In this document: one piece after another, positions 18,904-33,214 of the stretch
Layout: each line of letters starts with the position of its first letter
Numbering within the stretch: position 1 is the first letter of the stretch
Assembly (NCBI GenBank): GCA_046484285.1
Contig: JAWOBP010000156.1
Coordinates: 2,518-66,517, forward strand
Source: Polyangia bacterium
GTDB lineage: Bacteria > Myxococcota_A > Polyangia > JAAYKL01
Direction: 5' to 3'
DNA length: 64,000 nucleotides
Made by a program: the position numbers and the translations under genes
Notes under the pieces: generated by a model
Seen by the model: only the letters and a program-made list of their open reading frames with translations
Database searches by the model: none
Told to the model about the DNA's origin: nothing

Positions 18904-21702
18904 ATGTCCAAGAAATATCTTTTCGTATTTGCTGTTTTCGCGGCTTGCTGGTCGCTGACCGGCTGGGGCTGCGATTCGAGCGGATCGGGGGGCTCCTCGG
19001 GCGACGCCGACACCGATGCCGACGCGGACGCCGATTCCGATGCCGACGCGGACGCCGATTCCGATACGGATGCCGACAGCGATGGCGACACGGACGCCGA
19101 CTCGGACGCCGACAGCGACGCCGACTCGGACGCCGACAGCGACGCCGACTCGGACACGGACTCCGATTCGGACACGGACATGCAGCAGACCGATTTTTGC
19201 AACGAGGACGGCTGGTGCTTCGAGAATCCCACCCCGCACGGCAACACGCTGCGCAGCGTCTGGATCAACTCAGCGAGCGACGTCTGGATGACCAGCGAGA
19301 CCGGGCAGGTGCTGCGCTACGACGGCAGCGACTGGTACGAGTGGCGCTCCGGAGAGTGGGGCGAGGTCTTCACCGCCCTGTGGGGCACCGCTCAGTCGAA
19401 CATGTTCGCGCTGAGCAGCAATCGGCTGATGCACTGGAACGGGAGCGGTTGGTCGGCGGTCTTCACCGACTACGGGCTGACCGCCGTGTTCGGTTTCGGC
19501 AGCGACGACATCTGGGTCACCAGCTACTATGGCGCCCACCACTGGGACGGCACGAGCTGGGAGGAGCACGAGCTGCCGGATTCGTACCTGGCGACCGTGT
19601 TCGGCGTCGCCACGGACGACGTCTGGCTCGGCGGGCAAAACGGCGTTCTCTACCACTGGAACGGCAGCGAGCTCGAGGATCGCTCCCTGACCGACGAGAA
19701 CCACATCTCCGATATCTGGGGCAGCGCCGCGGACGACGTCTACCTCGCATCGGCCGGCTCGAATTCGCTCTACCACTGGGACGGATCCGAGATGGGCCAG
19801 CTCAATCCCGGGCTGACCGCGAGCGGCTGGTCGAAGATCGCGGGCATCGCGGCCGACGACATCTACCTGCTGGGCTCGGGCAACAGGGTGGGTCATTACG
19901 ACGGATCCTTCTGGAGCGACGTCTCGCCCACGGTCCAGCCCTGGTCGCTGGTGGACATCGACGCCGAGTCGGGCGGCGACGTCTGGCTGGTGGGAGGCTA
20001 CGGGATCTTCTGCCAACGGGACGGGGGCGGCTGGGCGTGCAGCGACGCGCTGACCTACGAGAACCTGCAGAGCGTGGGAGGCAGCGCGGCCGACGATCTG
20101 ACGGCCTGCTCCGGCTGGGGCGTGATCGCGGAGCGCGGCTCGGGAGGCTGGAGCACCAATCAGGTCGCGGTTCCGACCTACCTTTCCGACGTCTGGCACA
20201 CGGGCGACGGGGTATTCTGGGGCTATTCCAGCAACACCTACACCGACGAGCTGCTCTTCTATCGCTACGACGGATCGGCGTGGAGCGAGTCGACGGTCGA
20301 AGCGCCGAGCGGGATGCACGCGGTCTGGGCCGGAGACGACGGCAGCGCCTGGGTGGCCGGTCTCGGCGGGCGGGCCTGCCGCTTCGACGGCGCGAGCTGG
20401 AGCTGCGACGCGACCGGGACGACCAAGGATCTGCAAGCCGTCTTCTCGGTGGACGGCGAGGTCTTCGCCGCCGGCCAGGACGGCGCCGTGGCTCACCACG
20501 ACGGAACGGGCTGGTCGCCGCAGGCGAGCAACGTGGACGACGACCTCCGCGCGGTCTGGGGCGCGAGCGCCGACGACGTCTGGGTCGTGGGACACCACGG
20601 CAACGCGGCGCATTTCGACGGCACGGCGTGGACGGCGGTCGATATCTCCAGCTCCTACGATCTCAACGACCTGTGGGGCTTCGCTTCGGACGACGTGTGG
20701 GCCGTGGGCTACAGCGGCGACGCCTTCCACTGGGACGGAGTCGAGTGGACCGAGGTGGAGACGCCGATCTACGACGAGATCTACTCCATCTGGGGCGCGA
20801 CGAGCGACGACGTCTGGGCGGTGTCCGACTGGGGCGGCCTGATCCACTGGGACGGGACGGAATGGAGCGAGGACACCAGCCTCGAGGACTGGGACATGAT
20901 GGCGGTTGCGGGCACCGCCTCCGACGATGTCTGGATCGTCGGCTGGCACGGAACCATGTACCACTACAACGGCTCGGCGTGGAGCGAGGTCAGCAACATG
21001 CTGACCGAGGATTCGCTCTACATGGAAGACATCACCGCCGGCGGAGGCGAGCTGTGGGTCGTCGACTGGGACGACCAGATCTACGCCCGCAAGAACGGCG
21101 CCTGGTCGATCCAGGTGCTGGCCGAGGAGGACGAGGCGCAGGTGACCGGGATCTGGGCCGCAGGACCGGACGACGCCTGGGCCGCGCTTCACCAGGGGAT
21201 GCTGCTGCGCTGGGACGGCGTCGAGTGGCGGCTCTACTCCAGCAGCGGGGCGTCGCGGCTGGACGCGATCCACGGCGCGGGCAGCGACCAGGTCTGGGCG
21301 ATCGGAGACGCCCTGATCGCCTGGGACGGCAGCGCCTGGACGCGGCTGGCCGACGTCTCGACTCAGAGCGAGAACGCCGATTTCGCCGGCATCTACGGGA
21401 CGTCCAGCAGCGAGCTGCGCGCTCTGCTGGAGAACGGAACGCTCTACTCATGGGACGGCTCCTCGTTCGCCCAGCAGTTCACGGTCGACTGGTACAACAT
21501 CTACATGGACGTGACCTGGCTGGGGCTCGACGAGCTGTGGGCCGTGGGCAGCGGCGGCGCTGTGCTGCACTGGGACGGCGTCTCGGTCGAGCTGCCGGCG
21601 AGGCTGACGAGCAACACGCTCTACGGAGTCACTTCGATTCCGGCCGGAGACCTGTTCGCCGTCGGACTGGGCGGCACGATTCTGCACCGCCTGCCGCAGT
21701 GA
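18904..21702 (+). CDS. large repeat lipoprotein: post-lipobox poly(Asp-Ser/Ala/Thr) tether + ~18 tandem Trp-rich beta-propeller-like repeats
   Basis: CAAGGAG RBS; [23 protein letters not shown] lipobox; 60-aa [27 protein letters not shown]... linker; then ~45-aa units with consensus [13 protein letters not shown]...HWDG..W (Ycf48/BNR-like blades). Confidence 0.8.
18997..19185 (+). repeat. imperfect 6/12-bp coding tandem repeat (GAC-RCS-GAY-KCS)n encoding the acidic tether
   Basis: Seen directly: gacgccgacaccgatgccgacgcggacgccgattccgat...gacagcgacgccgactcggacgcc... Confidence 0.7.
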
Positions 21703-21739
21703 CGGGGAGTCGGGCTCGATGGCAAGGAGGACAAAAACG

Positions 21740-22669
21740 ATGATCGGCAAGCTGCGAATCGCCCTGCTGGCCGCCGGGCTGGTCGCCGTCTCGGGCTGCG
21801 AGTCGGCCGGCGGCGCCAGCTCCGGCTCCGATGCCGACGCCGACGCGGACGGCGATAGCGACGGCGATAGCGACGGCGACAGCGACGCAGATTCGGACTC
21901 GGACCAGGAGTGCACGGACGGGGCCGCGATCTGCGCTGACGACTACACCGCGCAGACCTGCATCGGCGGGGAGTGGGTCGTCACCGACGAGTGTAACCCC
22001 GAGACCCAGATGTGCGTGGGCGGCGTCTGCGCCGACTGCGTGGACATCGAGTTCTCGATCCAGACCCAGCAGGCCTGCGCGATCTCGATCCTGGACGGTT
22101 ACGAGATGGACGGTGAGGGCTTCATCGAGCTGTACGGCGAGCAGTACCGCGTCTTCGCCATGGATCGCTGGGGCGAGGGGCACATCATCGCCTGGGCCGA
22201 CTCGACGACCACCGGCGAGCTGCTCGAGGCGTTCAACGTGACCGGCTACCTGGGCCAGATGGACGATCCGACCGTGGTCTCGTTCGGCGACAACTACCTG
22301 TGCAACCCGGACGGGCTGGACGGCTACATGCCTGACTACGTGCAGTACCTGGGCGAGGATCTTCCGGCCGCCTACCTGCAGAACGCCGCGCAGATGGCCA
22401 GTGATTTCGACGTGCTGATCTTCTGCGGGTTCCGCATTCCGTGGAGCAACGACTGGGCCGACGAGATTGCCGAGTTCGTCTCCCAGCACGGCAAGGGCTT
22501 CTTGGCGGTGATGGACTACGAGGGCGTGGTGGTGGCCGAGGATTTCACCAACATGAGCGCGATCACCTCCCAGGCCGGGATCGTGTTCGATCCGCTCAAC
22601 CTGGATTGGGCGCCGACCTCGGTCTCGGTTCAGCTGGAGTGCGTGCCCGACGTGCCTCCGGTCGAGTAG
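21740..22669 (+). CDS. hypothetical lipoprotein with acidic (D-S/A/G)n tether
   Basis: ATG at 21740 preceded by AGGAGG; MIGKLRIALLAAGLVAVSGC lipobox; [28 protein letters not shown] linker; Cys-rich globular domain; no family recognised. Confidence 0.6.
   Translation: MIGKLRIALLAAGLVAVSGCESAGGASSGSDADADADGDSDGDSDGDSDADSDSDQECTDGAAICADDYTAQTCIGGEWVVTDECNPETQMCVGGVCADCVDIEFSIQTQQACAISILDGYEMDGEGFIELYGEQYRVFAMDRWGEGHIIAWADSTTTGELLEAFNVTGYLGQMDDPTVVSFGDNYLCNPDGLDGYMPDYVQYLGEDLPAAYLQNAAQMASDFDVLIFCGFRIPWSNDWADEIAEFVSQHGKGFLAVMDYEGVVVAEDFTNMSAITSQAGIVFDPLNLDWAPTSVSVQLECVPDVPPVE
21824..21910 (+). repeat. short coding tandem repeat (GAC/GGC-GAT-AGC)n encoding DADADGDSDGDSDGDSDADSDSD
   Basis: gatgccgacgccgacgcggacggcgatagcgacggcgatagcgacggcgacagcgacgcagattcggactcggac. 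Confidence 0.6.
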
Positions 22670-22690
22670 CTCGAGCCCGCTGGAGGCGTC

Positions 22691-23257
22691 TCAGGCGTCT
22701 CCCACGGTCGCGGCCAGCGCGCCCGGCTCGATCCCCAGCCGGCGCAGGGCGGTCTCCCAGCGCTTCTCCATCGGGACGTCGAAGACCAGGTCGGCCTCGA
22801 ACGGGACCGTGATCCACGAGCCGCTCTTGATCTCGCCGATCAGCTGACCGGGGCCCCAGCCGGCGTAGCCCAGGCAGAACATGTAGCTGGCCGGGCCGTG
22901 ACCGGTGGCGATCGCCTCCACGATGTCGCGCGAGGCGGTGACCCGCACGCCGTCGGCCACCGGCCTGGTCTGATCGCCGTCCCAGTCCGCGCTGTGCAGG
23001 ATCCAGCCCAGCTCGACCGCCACGGGGCCGCCGTACATCACCGGCGGATGGGAGCGGCCGTCCACCTCGCCTTCGACCTCGACCTCCATTGCCTCGAGCA
23101 CGTCGGCCAGCTCGAGCTCGGCCGAGCGGTTGATCACCAGGCCCAGCGAGCCCTCGTCGTCCTCGTGCTCCATCATCAGAACAACGGTGCGCTCGAAGTT
23201 GGGATCCTTGAGCTGGGGCGCCGCGACCAGGAATCCGGGTGAGATGCGAGAACTCAT
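22691..23257 (-). CDS. YqgE/AlgH-family (UPF0301/DUF179) protein
   Basis: GFLVAAPQLKDPNFERTVVLMMEHEDDEGSLGLVINR... is the conserved N-terminus of the YqgE/AlgH family; start at ATG 23255-57 (GTG at 23272 also possible). Confidence 0.7.
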   Translation of the reverse strand: MSSRISPGFLVAAPQLKDPNFERTVVLMMEHEDDEGSLGLVINRSAELELADVLEAMEVEVEGEVDGRSHPPVMYGGPVAVELGWILHSADWDGDQTRPVADGVRVTASRDIVEAIATGHGPASYMFCLGYAGWGPGQLIGEIKSGSWITVPFEADLVFDVPMEKRWETALRRLGIEPGALAATVGDA

Positions 23258-23382
23258 GGAGTGATCATGCACGCTGCAAGCGCCCCTGTCGAGTGCCGGG
23301 CGGACGGATTGTGCCGGGGGGATGGATGCCGGGAGGATGGATGTTACCCGTGGGGACAGCCGGCTCTCCGTGCGGGGCGGGA

Positions 23383-24467: not shown

Positions 24468-24632
24468 CTAGTGCCTCGTCAACCCGACGATTTCGGGTAC
24501 GGGGCGAGAGATCATCGGCGAGGCCAAGGAACGACGACGAAGGACTGGCGGTGCCAATTCGAGGAGGAGTGACGCAGGGATCGTCGATGAGGGCCGGCCC
24601 GACCCGGCATTGTGGGGTTGACGAGGCGCTAG
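24468..24632. mobile_element. MITE-like element, copy A (IS630/Tc1-type: CTAG target, TA duplication, ~18-bp TIR)
   Basis: 165 bp bounded by CTAG...CTAG; TIR CTAGTGCCTCGTCAACCC / GGGTTGACGAGGCGCTAG; 100 % identical (bar one C) to the inverted copy at 37983..38146; no transposase ORF inside. Confidence 0.6.
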
Positions 24633-25061
24633 GCGGCGAAAGGAGTCGATCTTGTCGCTGTTGCCAATTCGGGCCCGGTCGAGAGCGTCGCGCAGCTCCT
24701 CGATCGTGCGGTCGTAGACGCGAAGCGGGACCGGGTGGGGGTGGCCGTCCTTTCCGCCGTGGGCGAAGGCGAAGCGGGCCGGATCGTCGAAGCGGGACGG
24801 AGCACCGCAGGCGACCTCGGAGGCGACCTCGGCGACCAGGGCCAGCGCCTGCATCGTACGCGGTCCCAGGCCCTCGGTCAGCAGCAGCGATTCGAAGTCG
24901 CGGCCGTCGGTCGCGACGAAGCCGTGCAGGTAGAGCGAGAAGCCGTCCTGGACTGCGGTGTTGTCCACCTTGGCCGTCAAGCGCGAGGCGCGCACCAGCG
25001 CTTCTCAGTCGAGCCCGGTGCGCTCGGCCGTGGCCAGCAGCTCGGCTGGTGTGGGATACAT
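24633..25061 (-). pseudogene. disrupted gene X (unknown family): in-frame TGA plus MITE insertion at 3' end
   Basis: Minus-strand ATG at 25059-61 gives MYPTPAELLATAERTGLD-TGA-EALVRASRLTAKVDNTAVQDGFSLYLHGFVATDGRDFESLL... (high GC3, protein-like); in-frame TGA at about 25005-07; reading frame then runs into MITE copy A and stops at its terminal CTAG. Confidence 0.3.
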
Positions 25062-28634: not shown

Positions 28635-31600
28635 TTACGTCCCGCCGCCCAAAAGCAGGATGTGATCCACCTCGAAGCGCTCGCCGCCGGCCGAGACCAG
28701 CGAGATCGGCAGCGAGCCGGAGGGCCAGAGACCGGGCTCCAACGAAAAGCGGTATTCCCTCATTGCTCCGCTCAGCTCCGCGGTCGCTGCAAGGCGACCG
28801 TCGATCCGCACCTCGAGCTTTTCCGAGCTGGCGGGGTCATCCCCCAGGTGTCGCGCGCGAACCAACAGCAGGCCGCCTCGATCCGCCATCGCCTCGAAGC
28901 GCAGCTCTGCGCGCGATCCCGAACTGAGGCAGGTGGTGCGTCCCAGGTAGCCGCCGCGCCCCTCGCCGTCTGCGGTGCAGCGCGCCCAACCGGAAACCAG
29001 CGAGGGGGCGCCCCGCGCCAGGTCGGTGCCGAACAGCGGCGCGCGGCCCACCGCTCCAATTCGGACAAGGCTCTCCGCGGTGCACTCCAACTCGGGCTCC
29101 TCCACGAGCAGCCGCAGCAGGCGGGGCGCGGCCCACTCGATCCCGAGCCGTCCCAGCGACTGGACCGCGTAGCAGCGCGTGTCGGTGTGGTCGTCGCTGG
29201 CCAGCACGTCGAGCAGCACGGCGCCGGCCCGCGGATCGCCGAGCAGGCCCAGCGCCTTGACCGTCCGGTAGCGGGTGCGGTTGTCGTCCAGCAGGTCGAC
29301 CAGCGGCTCGAAGGCCCGCCTGTCACCGAGGCGGCCCAGGTGGCGAATCGCGGCGGTGCGCAGCTCGAGATCGCCGCGGTGCAGGGCCTCGATCAGGGCG
29401 GGGACCGCGGCCGTGTCGCCGAGGTTCGCCAGCGCCAGCGCCGCCCGATCCCGCCTGGACGTCTCCCGGGAGCCGAGCGCCTCGCGCAGCACGCGAGCCC
29501 CGCGCGAGCTGCCCAGCCGACCGAGCGCCACCGCGGCCGCCAGCGCCACGTCGCGATCCCCGTCGCCGAGCAGCTCTGCGATCTCACCTGTCTTCTTTCG
29601 CACGCCGATCTCGCCGACGAGCTCGAGCGCTTCGCAGCGATCCCGGCTTTGCGCCTCGACGTCGCGCGCCACGTCGAGCAGCGTCGGCACGGCCCGCGGA
29701 TCGCGCAGGCGGCCGAGACGGAGCGCCCGTCGCGTCCGGTCCGCGGCGGCGGCGATCCCGTCGATCCAGACGCGGATCTCGTCGAGCAGCTCGGCGCCGA
29801 CATCCGGCTCTCGGTCGTAGAGGTTGCGCTTCTCGCCCGGATCCGAGCCGAGGTCGTAGAGCTCGAAGAGGCGGCGGGAGGGATCCGATATCAGCTTCCA
29901 GGGCCAGCGCACGGCCATGTGCTGTCGCATCACCGAGGCGAAGACCGGGTGGGGCGTCCGGGGGCTCTGCCCGGAGAGCAGAAACGGACGCAGGTCGCGA
30001 CCCTCCATCCGGGCCGGGACATCGACGCCGACCAGGCGCAGCAGGGTGGGCGCCGTGTCCAGCGTCGAGACCGGCTGCTCCACGAAGCGGGGTTCGGCTC
30101 CGGGAACCCGGATGATCAGCGGCACGCGCACCTGCTCCTCGTAGAGCGAGGAACCGTGGTAATGCCCGCCGTGCTCGCCGAACTCCTCGCCGTGGTCGGC
30201 GGTCAGCACCACGACCGCGTCGCGCGCCAGCTCTTTTTCCACGTGGTCGAGCAAGCGGCCGGCCGCCGCGTCGGCCTCGAAGATCTCGCCTTCGTAGCGC
30301 TCCCGCGGCGAGGTGCCGAAACGCTCCGAGCGGTAGGGCTCGTGGACGTTGAAGAAGTGCACCCAGAGGAAGAAGGCCGGCTCGCCCTGCTCGATGTAGC
30401 TCTCGATCCTGGTGATCGCCAGATCGGCGAGCTTGTCCGGAGACGGAGATCCGTGGTGCACGGACTCGAATCCGAAGCTGCGATCGCGCAGCGAGCCCAC
30501 CCGATCGCCGTGGGTGTGGAAGATCCCGTTGGTGTAGAACGCCGAGCTCTCGTAGCCGGATTCTCCCAGCACGTCGGCCATGGTCGTGGTGCTCGATACG
30601 TCGAGCCCCATCGCCACCTCGTCGTAGAGGTAGCGGGAGGTGTGGAACGATGAGATCGAGTACGAGCTGTGAGGCACCGGGCAGTAGGCGCGCTCGAAGG
30701 CCGTGGCGCGGCTCGCCCACTCGTCGATTCGCGGCGAGGCGGGTCGCTCGTGGTAGCCGTAGACGCCCAGGCGGTCGGCGCGCAACGCGTCGATCGAGAT
30801 GATGATCAGGTGCGCGCCGGGGAAGGTCGGCCAGTCGCCGGAGGATATCACCTCCCGCTCGGCGCGCTCTCGCTCGTAGAGCCTCCGTCGCGCCGCGGTC
30901 GAGGGGCGGCTCTCGGCCGGGGATTTCCCGCTCGCGACAATGCTGGCGACGCGCAGCAGGCTCGAGGTGGTCGCCGTCCGCTCGTGCAGCGCCAGCTTGA
31001 CCGTCTGTCGTTCGTTGCTGGTCCACAGCGCCGCCGCCAGCAGCAGCAAAACCAACGCGGCGGTCCGCGCGGCGGCGATCGCCAGGCGCCCGGTTTCGAC
31101 GCGGCCCAGGCGCGAGATGGCGATTCGCGCTCCCAGCGCCAGCAACCCCAGCGAGCCCAGCGCCAGCGCAGCGTGCAGGTAGTCGTAGAGGCGGCGGTAG
31201 AGGTGTCCGTCACACCAGCGCGCGCCCAGCGCCAGCGCCACCAGCGCCAGCACTGCGGCCAGCCTGGCGCCGCGCGCCGCGTTCGGGCGGTCGAGCCTCG
31301 CGACCAGGGCCAGGACCACGCTCGCAGCGATCCATGTCAGCACCGCCAGGAGCAGCGCTGCCAGCGCGACCAGCAGCCAGCGCGCCGGCAGGCGGGAGGT
31401 CGTTCCACCCTGGAAGAGGCGCACTGCCACGTAGATGCAGGCGGGCAGCGCCAGCACCGTCAGCGCCCAGGACGAGCCGCGCGCGGGGCGGCGACTCCGC
31501 CGCCGCCAAAGCCGGGCGCCCGCCAGCGATCCGACCGACGCCACGAGCGCGATGCACAGGCCGATCGGAGCCAGCCGTCCGGCGGTCTGCAGCAGGAGCA

Positions 31601-31760
31601 ATGCTCGTTGGGCCGTTCCGGACAGATCCGACCAGCCCTGTACGGCATCCAGGGCGCCCGCGATCAGCCCCGCCGCCGCCCCGGAGACGACGGCCAGCGA
31701 CGGTCCGGCGAAGTCCGGGATCGCGGTCTCTGATCGGCCGGCTGCCAGTGAAAAGCTCAT
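28635..31760 (-). CDS. 1041-aa polytopic membrane protein: sulfatase-like (AP-superfamily) domain + HEAT (PBS-lyase-type) repeats + C-terminal beta-rich domain
   Basis: Start MSFSLAAGRSE (aa 45 of ORF 28635..31892; the ORF-track N-terminus overlaps tRNA-Cys); ~7 Ala/Leu-rich TM helices in the first 320 aa; HLIIISIDALRADRLGVYGY...CPVPHSS (non-canonical motif); GDTAAVPALIEAL/…LGRLGDRRAFEPLVDLLDD HEAT repeats. Confidence 0.7.
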   Translation of the reverse strand: MSFSLAAGRSETAIPDFAGPSLAVVSGAAAGLIAGALDAVQGWSDLSGTAQRALLLLQTAGRLAPIGLCIALVASVGSLAGARLWRRRSRRPARGSSWALTVLALPACIYVAVRLFQGGTTSRLPARWLLVALAALLLAVLTWIAASVVLALVARLDRPNAARGARLAAVLALVALALGARWCDGHLYRRLYDYLHAALALGSLGLLALGARIAISRLGRVETGRLAIAAARTAALVLLLLAAALWTSNERQTVKLALHERTATTSSLLRVASIVASGKSPAESRPSTAARRRLYERERAEREVISSGDWPTFPGAHLIIISIDALRADRLGVYGYHERPASPRIDEWASRATAFERAYCPVPHSSYSISSFHTSRYLYDEVAMGLDVSSTTTMADVLGESGYESSAFYTNGIFHTHGDRVGSLRDRSFGFESVHHGSPSPDKLADLAITRIESYIEQGEPAFFLWVHFFNVHEPYRSERFGTSPRERYEGEIFEADAAAGRLLDHVEKELARDAVVVLTADHGEEFGEHGGHYHGSSLYEEQVRVPLIIRVPGAEPRFVEQPVSTLDTAPTLLRLVGVDVPARMEGRDLRPFLLSGQSPRTPHPVFASVMRQHMAVRWPWKLISDPSRRLFELYDLGSDPGEKRNLYDREPDVGAELLDEIRVWIDGIAAAADRTRRALRLGRLRDPRAVPTLLDVARDVEAQSRDRCEALELVGEIGVRKKTGEIAELLGDGDRDVALAAAVALGRLGSSRGARVLREALGSRETSRRDRAALALANLGDTAAVPALIEALHRGDLELRTAAIRHLGRLGDRRAFEPLVDLLDDNRTRYRTVKALGLLGDPRAGAVLLDVLASDDHTDTRCYAVQSLGRLGIEWAAPRLLRLLVEEPELECTAESLVRIGAVGRAPLFGTDLARGAPSLVSGWARCTADGEGRGGYLGRTTCLSSGSRAELRFEAMADRGGLLLVRARHLGDDPASSEKLEVRIDGRLAATAELSGAMREYRFSLEPGLWPSGSLPISLVSAGGERFEVDHILLLGGGT

Positions 31761-31778
31761 GGGCAAGAAACGACTCTG

Positions 31779-31849
<71 letters not shown>

Positions 31850-31938
31850 CGAAACGAACGGGAATCCTAGTCGTGCCCGACCCCGTTGTCAATTGCGCGG
31901 ACCTTGGGCGAGTGGGCGAGAGGTCGTCCCGTCAGAAT

Positions 31939-31960: not shown

Positions 31961-32023
31961 GCAGTATGATGATAGATGAAAAACAAAGGAAGAGACCGAA
32001 TCTTGCAACACGAGGAGGCCGAT

Positions 32024-33214
32024 ATGCGTACATGGTGGGCTATGACTGCAATCGCCGCGCTGCTCCTGGCAGCTTGCGGCGGAGATCCGCCGCCGTTCGA
32101 CGCAGACGCCGGTACGGACGCGGACAGCGACGCGGATTCCGACGCGGACTCCGACGCGGACTCCGACGCGGACTCCGACGCGGACTCCGACGCGGACTCC
32201 GACGCGGACTCCGACGCGGACTCCGACGCGGATTCCGACGCGGATTCCGACGCGGACTCCGACGCGGACTCCGACGCGGACTCCGACGCGGACGCGGATC
32301 AGTGCACCGGAGAGGAGCAGATCGAGCTGCTGGTCGCCGACGCGGAGATAACCGAGCCGATGGAGACCGCCGAGAGCCAGTCGGGCGAGGGCATCTACTG
32401 CCGCACCACGGTCTACGGCGAAGGTCTGGCCGAGTGGTCGGGAGTGCAGATTCCCTGCCAGGGTGACTGGTACGTGCTGGGCCGCGTCTTCGGACAGGCG
32501 CCGGTCGACTCGATGTACCTGACGGTCGAGGATTACGACGAGGTGGTCTGGGATTTCAGCCAGTGCGAGGGGACCCAGTACTGGGACTGGGACTTCGCCT
32601 CCTCCGGGCCGGACGTCGAGGAGTGCTCGGTCGGCGAGATCGAGGATCCGGTGTCGTTCTTCCTGGTGCCCGGGCCGATCGGCGTCGCTCTTCGCGGGCG
32701 CGAGATACCGTCCGAACAGGGATACTCGCCATCGGTGGCCCGCCTCTACCTGGTCACCGATCCCGAGATCGATCCGGACACGATCGGGCTGGGCCTGCTG
32801 GACATCACCGGCCCCGGCGCTGTTCCCGACAACCTGGTCGACATCTACCACCAGGTGGGCGACGTCGGCACGCCGCTCGACACGACGCTGGAGGCCTGGA
32901 TCCGCTGGTCCGGCTCGGTGAGCCCGGACAACGAGGAGGGCTGCGGGCCCTATCCCCCGGACGTGTTCACCGATGCGGTGGCTCTGATTCGCAGGGGCAC
33001 CTGCCAGTTCTCCGACAAGGTCGCCAATGCCGAAGCGGCCGGCGCGGTGGGAGCAGTCGTGCTCAACAATCAGGGCAACGAGATAGTCTACATGACGGGA
33101 GATCCCAACGGTATTCCGGCCACCTTCGTCGGCCAGGACGACGGGCAGGCGATCGTCGACTGGATCCTGGATCACCCCGGCCAGGCCACCGTCGCGATCC
33201 ACCCCATGCCCTGA
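32024..33214 (+). CDS. lipoprotein with (Asp-Ala-Asp-Ser)17 tether and C-terminal PA (protease-associated) domain
   Basis: Start [20 protein letters not shown] (aa 17 of ORF); 68-aa perfect DADS repeat; C-terminal [35 protein letters not shown]...[14 protein letters not shown] is a PA-domain signature. Confidence 0.7.
32117..32300 (+). repeat. near-perfect 12-bp tandem repeat (GCGGAYTCCGAC)~15 encoding (ADSD)n
   Basis: Seen directly: gcggactccgac repeated head-to-tail with only T/C wobble differences; likely prone to slipped-strand length change. Confidence 0.8.

Follow-up and report, generated by a model that had tools for sequence, protein, structure and literature searches.

A predicted lipoprotein with three HWDG..W-type propellers on an acidic stalk in a Polyangia bacterium

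A gene for a 932-aa protein lies at 18904–21702 on the forward strand of a 64,000-nt stretch of DNA from a Polyangia bacterium (GenBank assembly GCA_046484285.1, contig JAWOBP010000156.1, positions 2,518–66,517). This whole stretch is referred to below as the window; its G+C content is ~62–74%. The protein is predicted to carry three seven-bladed β-propellers on a lipid anchor and an acidic stalk, and it belongs to a very widespread propeller family. The boundaries of the open reading frame (ORF) given in an earlier reading of this DNA, here called the original prediction, are exact, and an exact-sequence lookup of the protein returned no record. A Shine-Dalgarno sequence (AAGGAG, 18892–18897, +) is located 6 nt 5' of the ATG, and GAGGAG occupies the equivalent spot in L006, the locus of the closest relative. 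A consensus promoter scan upstream of the gene found nothing, and the promoter and terminator scan around it was uninformative. A palindromic AGTATACT with a TATACT −10-like hexamer is present at ~18850–18860, ~50 nt 5' of the ATG at 18904, and this palindrome is kept in the window and in L006 although the rest of the leader has diverged.

All features of the protein are encoded on the forward strand. The signal peptide (18904–18972), with K/R within residues 1–7 followed by a hydrophobic h-region, ends in the presumed lipidated Cys23. This cysteine is invariant in a six-sequence alignment (the query and five full-length orthologues), and the propeller protein is likely lipidated there. A Gly/Ser spacer read from the translation (residues 24–33; 18973–19002) and an acidic tether (residues 34–92; 19003–19179) precede a conserved N-terminal cap (residues 93–115; 19180–19248), in which Cys99 and Cys105 stand around the DGW hairpin FC-NEDGW-C (98–105). 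The cap is the most conserved segment among the orthologues (mean identity 0.75), with F98, C99, N100, G103, W104, and C105 invariant.

The repeats that make up the remainder of the protein are far beyond chance. A hidden Markov model (HMM) seeded with seven units detected 20 distinct repeat units, 13 of them non-seed, the best i-E-value being 1e-22. One further, degenerate blade (residues 707–736), seen in the AlphaFold model, brings the number to 21, and blade starts are on average 39.5 aa apart. Trp accounts for 7.3% of residues 101–932. The figure of about 18 repeats of 45 aa proposed originally is thus replaced, on the HMM and the AlphaFold model, by 21 blades of ~39 aa; the proposed repeat consensus ending in HWDG..W stands, as the consensus of 25 family sequences recovers L..VWG....DVWAVG..G...HWDG..W.

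The HWDG..W hairpin sits between strands 3 and 4 of the blade, replacing the DGG.TW Asp-box. Its general form, [H 67% / R 17%]-[W/Y/F]-[D/N]-G-x-x-[W/F/Y], has 1547 instances in 120 relatives, against two canonical Asp-boxes. The Asp-box is defined as S-x-D-x-G-x-T-W and the s-Asp-box as S/t-x-D/n-x-x-x-W/f/y (Quistgaard and Thirup, 2009; PMC2716378). Hairpin position and the D-to-W spacing of 4 fit the s-Asp-box in 17 of the 21 query blades, with S/T replaced by H/R. The DUF2510 (PF10708) motif matches the strand 3–4 hairpin nine times in the family consensus, at profile positions 16–31 of 35. Sequence comparison suggests that this hairpin may be a recurrent mini-motif used outside propellers too.

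An AlphaFold2 model of residues 96–932 (837 residues), built from a 25-sequence alignment, is all-β, with a mean pLDDT of 91.2 and a pTM of 0.81. It has 84 strands, one N-terminal and 83 further, which form 21 four-stranded blades by DSSP, blade 21 being without strand 4. The extra N-terminal strand lies at ~103–106, within the 'DGWC' hairpin of the cap. The propeller-like fold originally proposed is therefore also what structure prediction gives with confidence. Foldseek matches of the full model were confined to generic multi-propeller proteins (LRP2, DDB1, and the BT4663/BT4673 sensors) at 9–13% identity and TM scores <0.4. They did not settle the domain partition, and a single-propeller fragment was modelled for that reason. 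This seven-blade fragment, residues 381–660, is predicted by AlphaFold to fold alone into a closed propeller of 28 strands (pLDDT 91.8, pTM 0.90). Its best Foldseek E-values belong to Ycf48 (5e-11, TMq 0.70, 16–17% identity); unrelated 7-bladed WD40 propellers come next (TMq 0.74–0.77), and the list includes the 6-bladed Tectonin 2 with the highest identity (18–19%). A DDB1-like triple-propeller arrangement was considered and is unsupported, the TMq of 0.38 corresponding to about one superposed propeller. Duplication of whole propellers was likewise rejected, as blade-to-blade identity carries no period-7 signal.

The three-stranded last blade, the N-terminal strand, a drop of pLDDT at residues 376–385 of the full model, and the occurrence of many relatives of ~600 aa, which cover ~65–70% of the query and would equal two propellers, point to a 7+7+7 partition. 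Of the two or three propellers initially envisaged, the models thus favour three, with seven blades each. Propeller 1 (~residues 100–375; 19201–20028), its boundary taken from the Ycf48 register, would comprise the cap strand, blades 1–6, and strands 1–3 of blade 7. Propeller 2 (~residues 376–652; 20029–20859), represented by the 381–660 fragment, contains the most canonical HWDG blades, 12–14. A second Cys-flanked hairpin (residues 369–379, with C370 and C379 invariant) is found at its start. Propeller 3 (~residues 653–932; 20860–21699) contains the three-stranded last blade, and the family profile aligns the whole Ycf48 propeller (25–318) to query residues 653–930, starting at strand 4 of blade 14. 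Each ring is probably completed by strand 4 of the unit before it, a role that the 'DGWC' cap would play for propeller 1.

A Pfam scan of the 932-aa protein gave no family at E ≤ 10, including Tectonin (PF19193) and PSII_BNR (PF14870), and no enzyme domain was found by Pfam and NCBIfam scans. A single-sequence search of the Protein Data Bank (PDB) yielded only a weak TLAP2 lead (E 0.35), and matches were significant only with the family profile, which identified Ycf48 (3.4e-13), Toxoplasma TLAP2 (9.9e-13), and Tectonin 2 (2.4e-10). The relation to Ycf48/BNR-type propellers suspected from the start is supported by this profile match, which extends over the whole 7-bladed domain at E = 3e-13, and by the top Foldseek match of the fragment. 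The family consensus scores above the gathering cut-offs of Tectonin PF19193 (60.1 bits in nine stretches; cut-off 30), of the DUF2510 hairpin motif (53.5 bits; cut-off 24), and of the Rax2 propeller (32.8 bits; cut-off 28.8); PSII_BNR does not match it. Among 25 real members, weak Pfam matches are sporadic: Rax2 in seven, DUF2510 in four, PSII_BNR in one (E 2.5e-5), and Tectonin in one (E 4e-4). Membership in an already named Pfam repeat family is accordingly borderline, the protein having no Pfam match and its family consensus lying above the Tectonin threshold. On these scores the family is best placed as a divergent, uncurated branch between tectonin and Ycf48/Asp-box propellers. Its fold and superfamily are known; the repeat variant is outside curated models, yet very widespread.

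A word-indexed search that scored 8000 candidates produced 1529 matches. Of the top 120, about half lack any Pfam annotation, and only ~11 have a propeller-type Pfam match. A profile search of 1.84 billion cluster representatives found 107,201 at E ≤ 1e-3, 63,283 at E ≤ 1e-10, and 20,531 at E ≤ 1e-30; the ~20,500 at the strictest threshold are 50%-identity clusters, and Ycf48-like proteins are probably included at the looser thresholds. Among species-representative genomes, those of Myxococcota and Chloroflexia/Anaerolineae are rich in the family and carry several copies each; Planctomycetota, Gemmatimonadota, and others also have members. Full-length orthologues of the 932-aa protein are few: five at 45–55% identity, and one at 89% in a metagenome-assembled genome named 'uncultured Myxococcales' (locus L006). 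Relatives are fused to CarboxypepD_reg, Big_2 (Ig-like), fn3, PKD, Calx-beta, and BACON domains, and about half have lipobox-like N-termini by a loose pattern. In three Ser/Thr kinases (P0027, P0028, and P0042) a transmembrane segment is followed by a C-terminal propeller region with 9–12 motifs, and from this order the propeller is taken to be the ectodomain. Giant members (P0174, P0176, P0192, and others) are up to 6713 aa long and match in as many as 16 separate stretches, which would imply dozens of propellers per polypeptide.

The acidic tether consists of 59 aa of strict D-x dipeptides (x = A/S/T/G) with ~30 negative charges, in agreement with the ~60-aa poly(Asp-Ala/Ser/Thr) linker described earlier, except that Gly is also among the x residues. 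Its DNA is made of imperfect period-6/24 tandem repeats (19002–19179, by TRF). Tether length and composition differ between orthologues. The L006 tether is shorter by exactly 20 aa (five DSDA-type units) in a genome ~90% identical, a difference that slippage or recombination within the period-6/24 DNA repeat could explain. NCBIfam models matched the 932-aa protein only as SD-repeat MSCRAMM proteins, over residues 24–101 (E 1.5e-11 to 1e-8). A literature search on Asp-rich lipoprotein linkers found nothing specific; in E. coli, outer-membrane lipoproteins commonly have disordered N-terminal linkers (bioRxiv 10.1101/2021.01.05.425367).

Similar tethers are found on other lipoproteins. In a third lipoprotein of the window (31976–33214, +), a ~60-residue (DADS)n tether directly adjoins the lipobox Cys and leads into a domain without family match and a C-terminal PA (protease-associated) domain. 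Another lipoprotein at locus L001 also bears an acidic tether. The PA-domain protein is unrelated, and its tether shows the acidic linker to be habitual among the lipoproteins of this genome. In the family of the lipoprotein encoded downstream of the propeller gene, the 15 closest homologues have a (D-x)n tether and distant ones are Gly/Ser-rich at the same position; Polyangiaceae are among the relatives with such Gly/Ser-rich post-lipobox linkers. As a linker style the acidic tether is lineage-wide, and it is no link between the propeller protein and the downstream lipoprotein.

The downstream gene (21740–22669, +) starts 37 nt past the propeller stop codon, its start being set by the Shine-Dalgarno sequence AAGGAGG, and may be co-transcribed with the propeller gene. 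It encodes a 309-aa protein with its own lipobox and (D-x)n tether; both the start at 21740 and the tether had been correctly predicted. The two genes are adjacent only in L006, the 89%-identical relative, in which nucleotide identity over window positions 18770–23316 is 90.7%, so the idea that the downstream gene might always accompany the propeller gene did not hold. By tblastn, the 309-aa protein was found in none of the other 84 loci examined. The downstream neighbour in distant orthologue loci is a 233-aa lipoprotein, a 226-aa protein, a Fic protein, or a 122-aa membrane protein. The downstream lipoprotein has 53 homologues (P0121–P0173), all in Myxococcota, at 55–98% identity, which make up a small and well-conserved family, and is composed of a Cys-rich N-terminal module and a ~200-aa domain. 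It has no Pfam match and no significant PDB sequence match. Five loci of its homologues (L086–L090) contain no propeller relative within 6 kb; the 899-aa neighbour in L089 is unrelated.

A conserved neighbourhood was sought from both the propeller orthologues and the downstream-lipoprotein homologues, and none was found. Two sulfatases, of which one is a 1085-aa fusion with HEAT repeats, and an AlgH-like protein are encoded in the window at 16790–18316 (−), 28635–31892 (−), and 22691–23272 (−). The AlgH and sulfatase/HEAT neighbourhood is shared by L086, where the propeller gene is absent. Since AlgH and sulfatase/HEAT recur around the L086 homologue, this block, and not the propeller gene, is the conserved context. 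Adjacency of a sulfatase to the propeller gene was discarded as a lead, as it is not kept even in L006. Collinearity between the window (18770) and L006 (2319) breaks abruptly ~130 nt 5' of the propeller start codon; beyond the break L006 has a 448-aa AAA-type ATPase gene, and the window has a divergent sulfatase and a small membrane ORF. A PEGA-domain Ser/Thr kinase is encoded 2 kb 5' of the propeller gene (15200–16732, +), adjoined by a type III secretion system (T3SS)/flagellar-type ATPase (13761–15083, −; ATP-synt_ab and T3SS_ATPase_C). A 175-aa ORF (24468–24995, −) aligns with DUF763 at its C-terminal end alone (profile positions 266–319 of 319), perhaps because the gene is truncated or its start is set wrongly. 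No photosystem II (PSII) genes were seen among the ORFs scanned, which cover the 64 kb of the window only.

The reading favoured here, to which about an even chance is given, is that the propeller protein would be a tethered, multivalent, non-enzymatic binding platform, probably lectin-like. A glycan ligand is considered somewhat more likely than a protein ligand. This reading is preferred because the protein has no catalytic domain, because of the architectures of its relatives, and because its closest solved relatives are non-enzymatic binders. It also accords with the structural kind of conservation among orthologues, whose identities are 0.43–0.61 in strands and 0.36 in loops. Ycf48 is bound to D1 peptide, according to PDB titles and to the literature (PMC10403576), and is a lipoprotein (PMC8038367). 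PDB titles of Tectonin 2 name complexes with methylated sugars. In the proposed mechanism, the signal peptide would be cleaved at the conserved Cys to give a mature envelope lipoprotein. A disordered polyanionic stalk of ~70 residues would connect the membrane with a rigid body of three seven-bladed propellers, 21 blades in all. The propellers would then capture a polymeric extracytoplasmic ligand, for which a glycan or glycoconjugate is the leading guess by tectonin analogy.

Several points weigh against this interpretation. The lipobox was judged by [LVI][ASTVI][GAS]C / PROSITE PS51257, and that of Cys23 is non-canonical, with Trp at −2, and fails PS51257. The N-terminal lipobox Cys of the original prediction therefore stands only in part, as a conserved Cys23 after a hydrophobic N-terminus. 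Cys15 satisfies PS51257 but is not conserved, and the aligned Cys satisfies it in three of the seven sequences tested (P0002, P0004, and P0005). The +2 residue after the conserved Cys is D or G across orthologues. In E. coli, Asp at +2 causes retention in the inner membrane, and the same would be expected here if the rule applied in this other lineage. The 7+7+7 partition, the velcro closure of the rings, and the putative disulfides are deduced indirectly from the models. The protein itself scores below every Pfam threshold. The loops of the putative binding face are poorly conserved among orthologues. Genomic context is unconserved among orthologues and so gives no functional hint, and no ligand, localisation, or phenotype record was found for any family member.

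The three propellers could instead dock envelope proteins, as a scaffold or assembly factor comparable to Ycf48 in PSII assembly or to BamB, the lipoprotein propeller of the BAM complex. This is rather unlikely. Ycf48, a lipoprotein that binds the D1 peptide through a conserved Arg patch, is the best match both by sequence profile and by structure, and the pTM of 0.81 for the full model is suggestive of a rigid platform of several domains. However, the surface loops vary, no conserved neighbour gene points to a partner complex, the organism is not known to have PSII, and the PSII_BNR model matches neither the protein nor the consensus. A role as ligand-sensing co-receptor, in which a cue from outside the cell or from the periplasm would be relayed to a signalling protein, comparable to the roles of the kinase fusions and the Bacteroides hybrid two-component sensors (HTCS), is decidedly improbable. 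It would accord with the order of transmembrane segment and 9–12 motifs in the kinase fusions, with the full-model matches to the BT4663/BT4673 sensor domains (E ~1e-17 to 1e-18), and with the PEGA-domain kinase 2 kb upstream. The propeller protein itself has no signalling domain, though; the divergent sulfatase separates it from this kinase, which is not syntenic in orthologue loci, and the likeness to HTCS is a generic propeller similarity at 11–12% identity.

There is very little probability left for a functional cell-surface pair, in which the 309-aa lipoprotein and the propeller protein would be co-expressed as a complex. The same strand, the 37-nt gap with no predicted terminator between the genes, the lipobox and acidic tether on both products, and the adjacency kept in L006 all speak for such a pair, which the original prediction had suggested from the shared kind of acidic tether. 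L006 is nevertheless so nearly identical that its synteny is trivial, each distant orthologue locus has a different downstream neighbour, and the tblastn result is 0 of 84. The surroundings of the partner homologues at L086–L090, covered over 6 kb, are likewise free of propeller relatives, and the tether, present on unrelated lipoproteins and replaced by Gly/Ser linkers in distant homologues, does not tie the two proteins together. An Asp-box-type glycoside hydrolase (GH) of the GH74, GH33, or sialidase kind, with a catalytic cleft between propellers, is the most improbable of the readings. Most Asp-box propellers are glycosidases (PMC2716378), sulfatase genes lie nearby, and a putative xyloglucanase appears at rank 45 of the full-model Foldseek list. 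Against this, no GH family model matched, no GH structure was among the profile matches to PDB sequences, no conserved acidic catalytic pair was identified, and the blades are very regular, enzymatic Asp-box propellers being characteristically irregular (PMC2716378).

The binding-platform reading may be extended, in a speculation considered quite unlikely as a whole, to the family. In this extension the [H/R]-aromatic-D-G-x-x-W propeller would be a major unrecognised bacterial extracytoplasmic recognition module connecting tectonin lectins with Ycf48/Asp-box propellers. It would serve both as kinase ectodomain and as surface-displayed lectin in Myxococcota, Chloroflexota, and Planctomycetota. 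In the protein described here, 21 blades on a polyanionic, possibly cation-binding stalk would make a high-avidity receptor for prey or matrix glycans (e.g., methylated or sulfated polysaccharides).

The main value of the finding is the closing of an annotation gap rather than surprising biology, the individual gene being unremarkable. Family members are almost all annotated as 'hypothetical', and Pfam and NCBIfam miss most of them. If a repeat model of their own were placed in a clan with Tectonin and PSII_BNR, a great many envelope proteins and kinase ectodomains of Myxococcota and Chloroflexota would be annotated, and a single ligand determination would inform the whole family. The lineage-wide swap from Gly/Ser to poly(Asp-x) linkers is a small, clean natural experiment on the requirements of lipoprotein tethers.

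Several known systems resemble parts of this protein. The stalk is similar to the SD stalks of the MSCRAMM adhesins ClfA, ClfB, SdrC, and SdrD, in which a long D-x dipeptide spacer also leads from anchor to binding domain. The match to these models (NF033845 and others) is compositional and not homologous (43 bits against a cut-off of 999). The MSCRAMM stalk is C-terminal, beside the LPXTG wall anchor, whereas the present one is N-terminal, beside a lipid anchor, in a diderm. The HTCS sensors BT4663/BT4673 (PDB 4A2L/4A2M, 3OTT, and 3VA6), the former named in a PDB title as part of a heparin/heparan-sulphate-sensing system, have tandem 7-bladed extracytoplasmic propellers as well. Their likeness, found by Foldseek with the full model at the E-values given above, is structural only (10–12% identity, TM ~0.27–0.30), and they carry transmembrane and signalling domains. 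The HTCS 'Reg_prop' repeat gave neither a Pfam match nor a PDB sequence-profile match for the present family.

Toxoplasma TLAP2 (PDB 9YA3, chain H) shares the hairpin wording LHWNGYTW, and its match (E = 9.9e-13) extends over ~185 positions with the top score per blade. TLAP2 is a eukaryotic cytoskeleton-associated protein, unlike the predicted bacterial envelope protein described here. A literature search on bacterial tectonin-like proteins and the TLAP2 propeller returned nothing specific. The s-Asp-box/BNR propellers (PMC2716378) are alike in the D/N...W hairpin between strands 3 and 4, in the D-to-W spacing of 4, and in the structural role of the motif. In them S/T is defining, whereas the present family has His (67%) or Arg (17%) instead. 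The usual place of s-Asp-boxes is in 5-bladed GH32/GH43 propellers, where one or two blades have them (PMC2716378), and enzymatic Asp-box propellers are irregular; here the motif is found in nearly every blade and the blades are regular.

The nearest systems are Tectonin 2 and Ycf48. The tectonin/TECPR β-propeller lectins are characterised by activity toward O-methylated glycans or LPS, with binding sites between blades. Among them, Tectonin 2 of Laccaria bicolor (PDB 5FSB/5FSC) has four-stranded blades of ~37–40 aa with a ...VWAV...G.i..W.G..W... pattern and is non-enzymatic, and the family-profile match to 5FSB covers query residues ~427–649 (E = 2.4e-10). It is a single soluble 6-bladed propeller, in contrast to the predicted three 7-bladed propellers on a lipid anchor and acidic stalk. 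Ycf48/HCF136 (PDB 2XBG and 5OJP) is alike in its 7-bladed propeller, in the position of the strand 3–4 hairpin, and, for Ycf48, in being a lipoprotein (PMC8038367). It has one propeller with D-G-G-x-T-W hairpins, whereas the protein described here is predicted to have three, with a hairpin one residue shorter (D-G-x-x-W).

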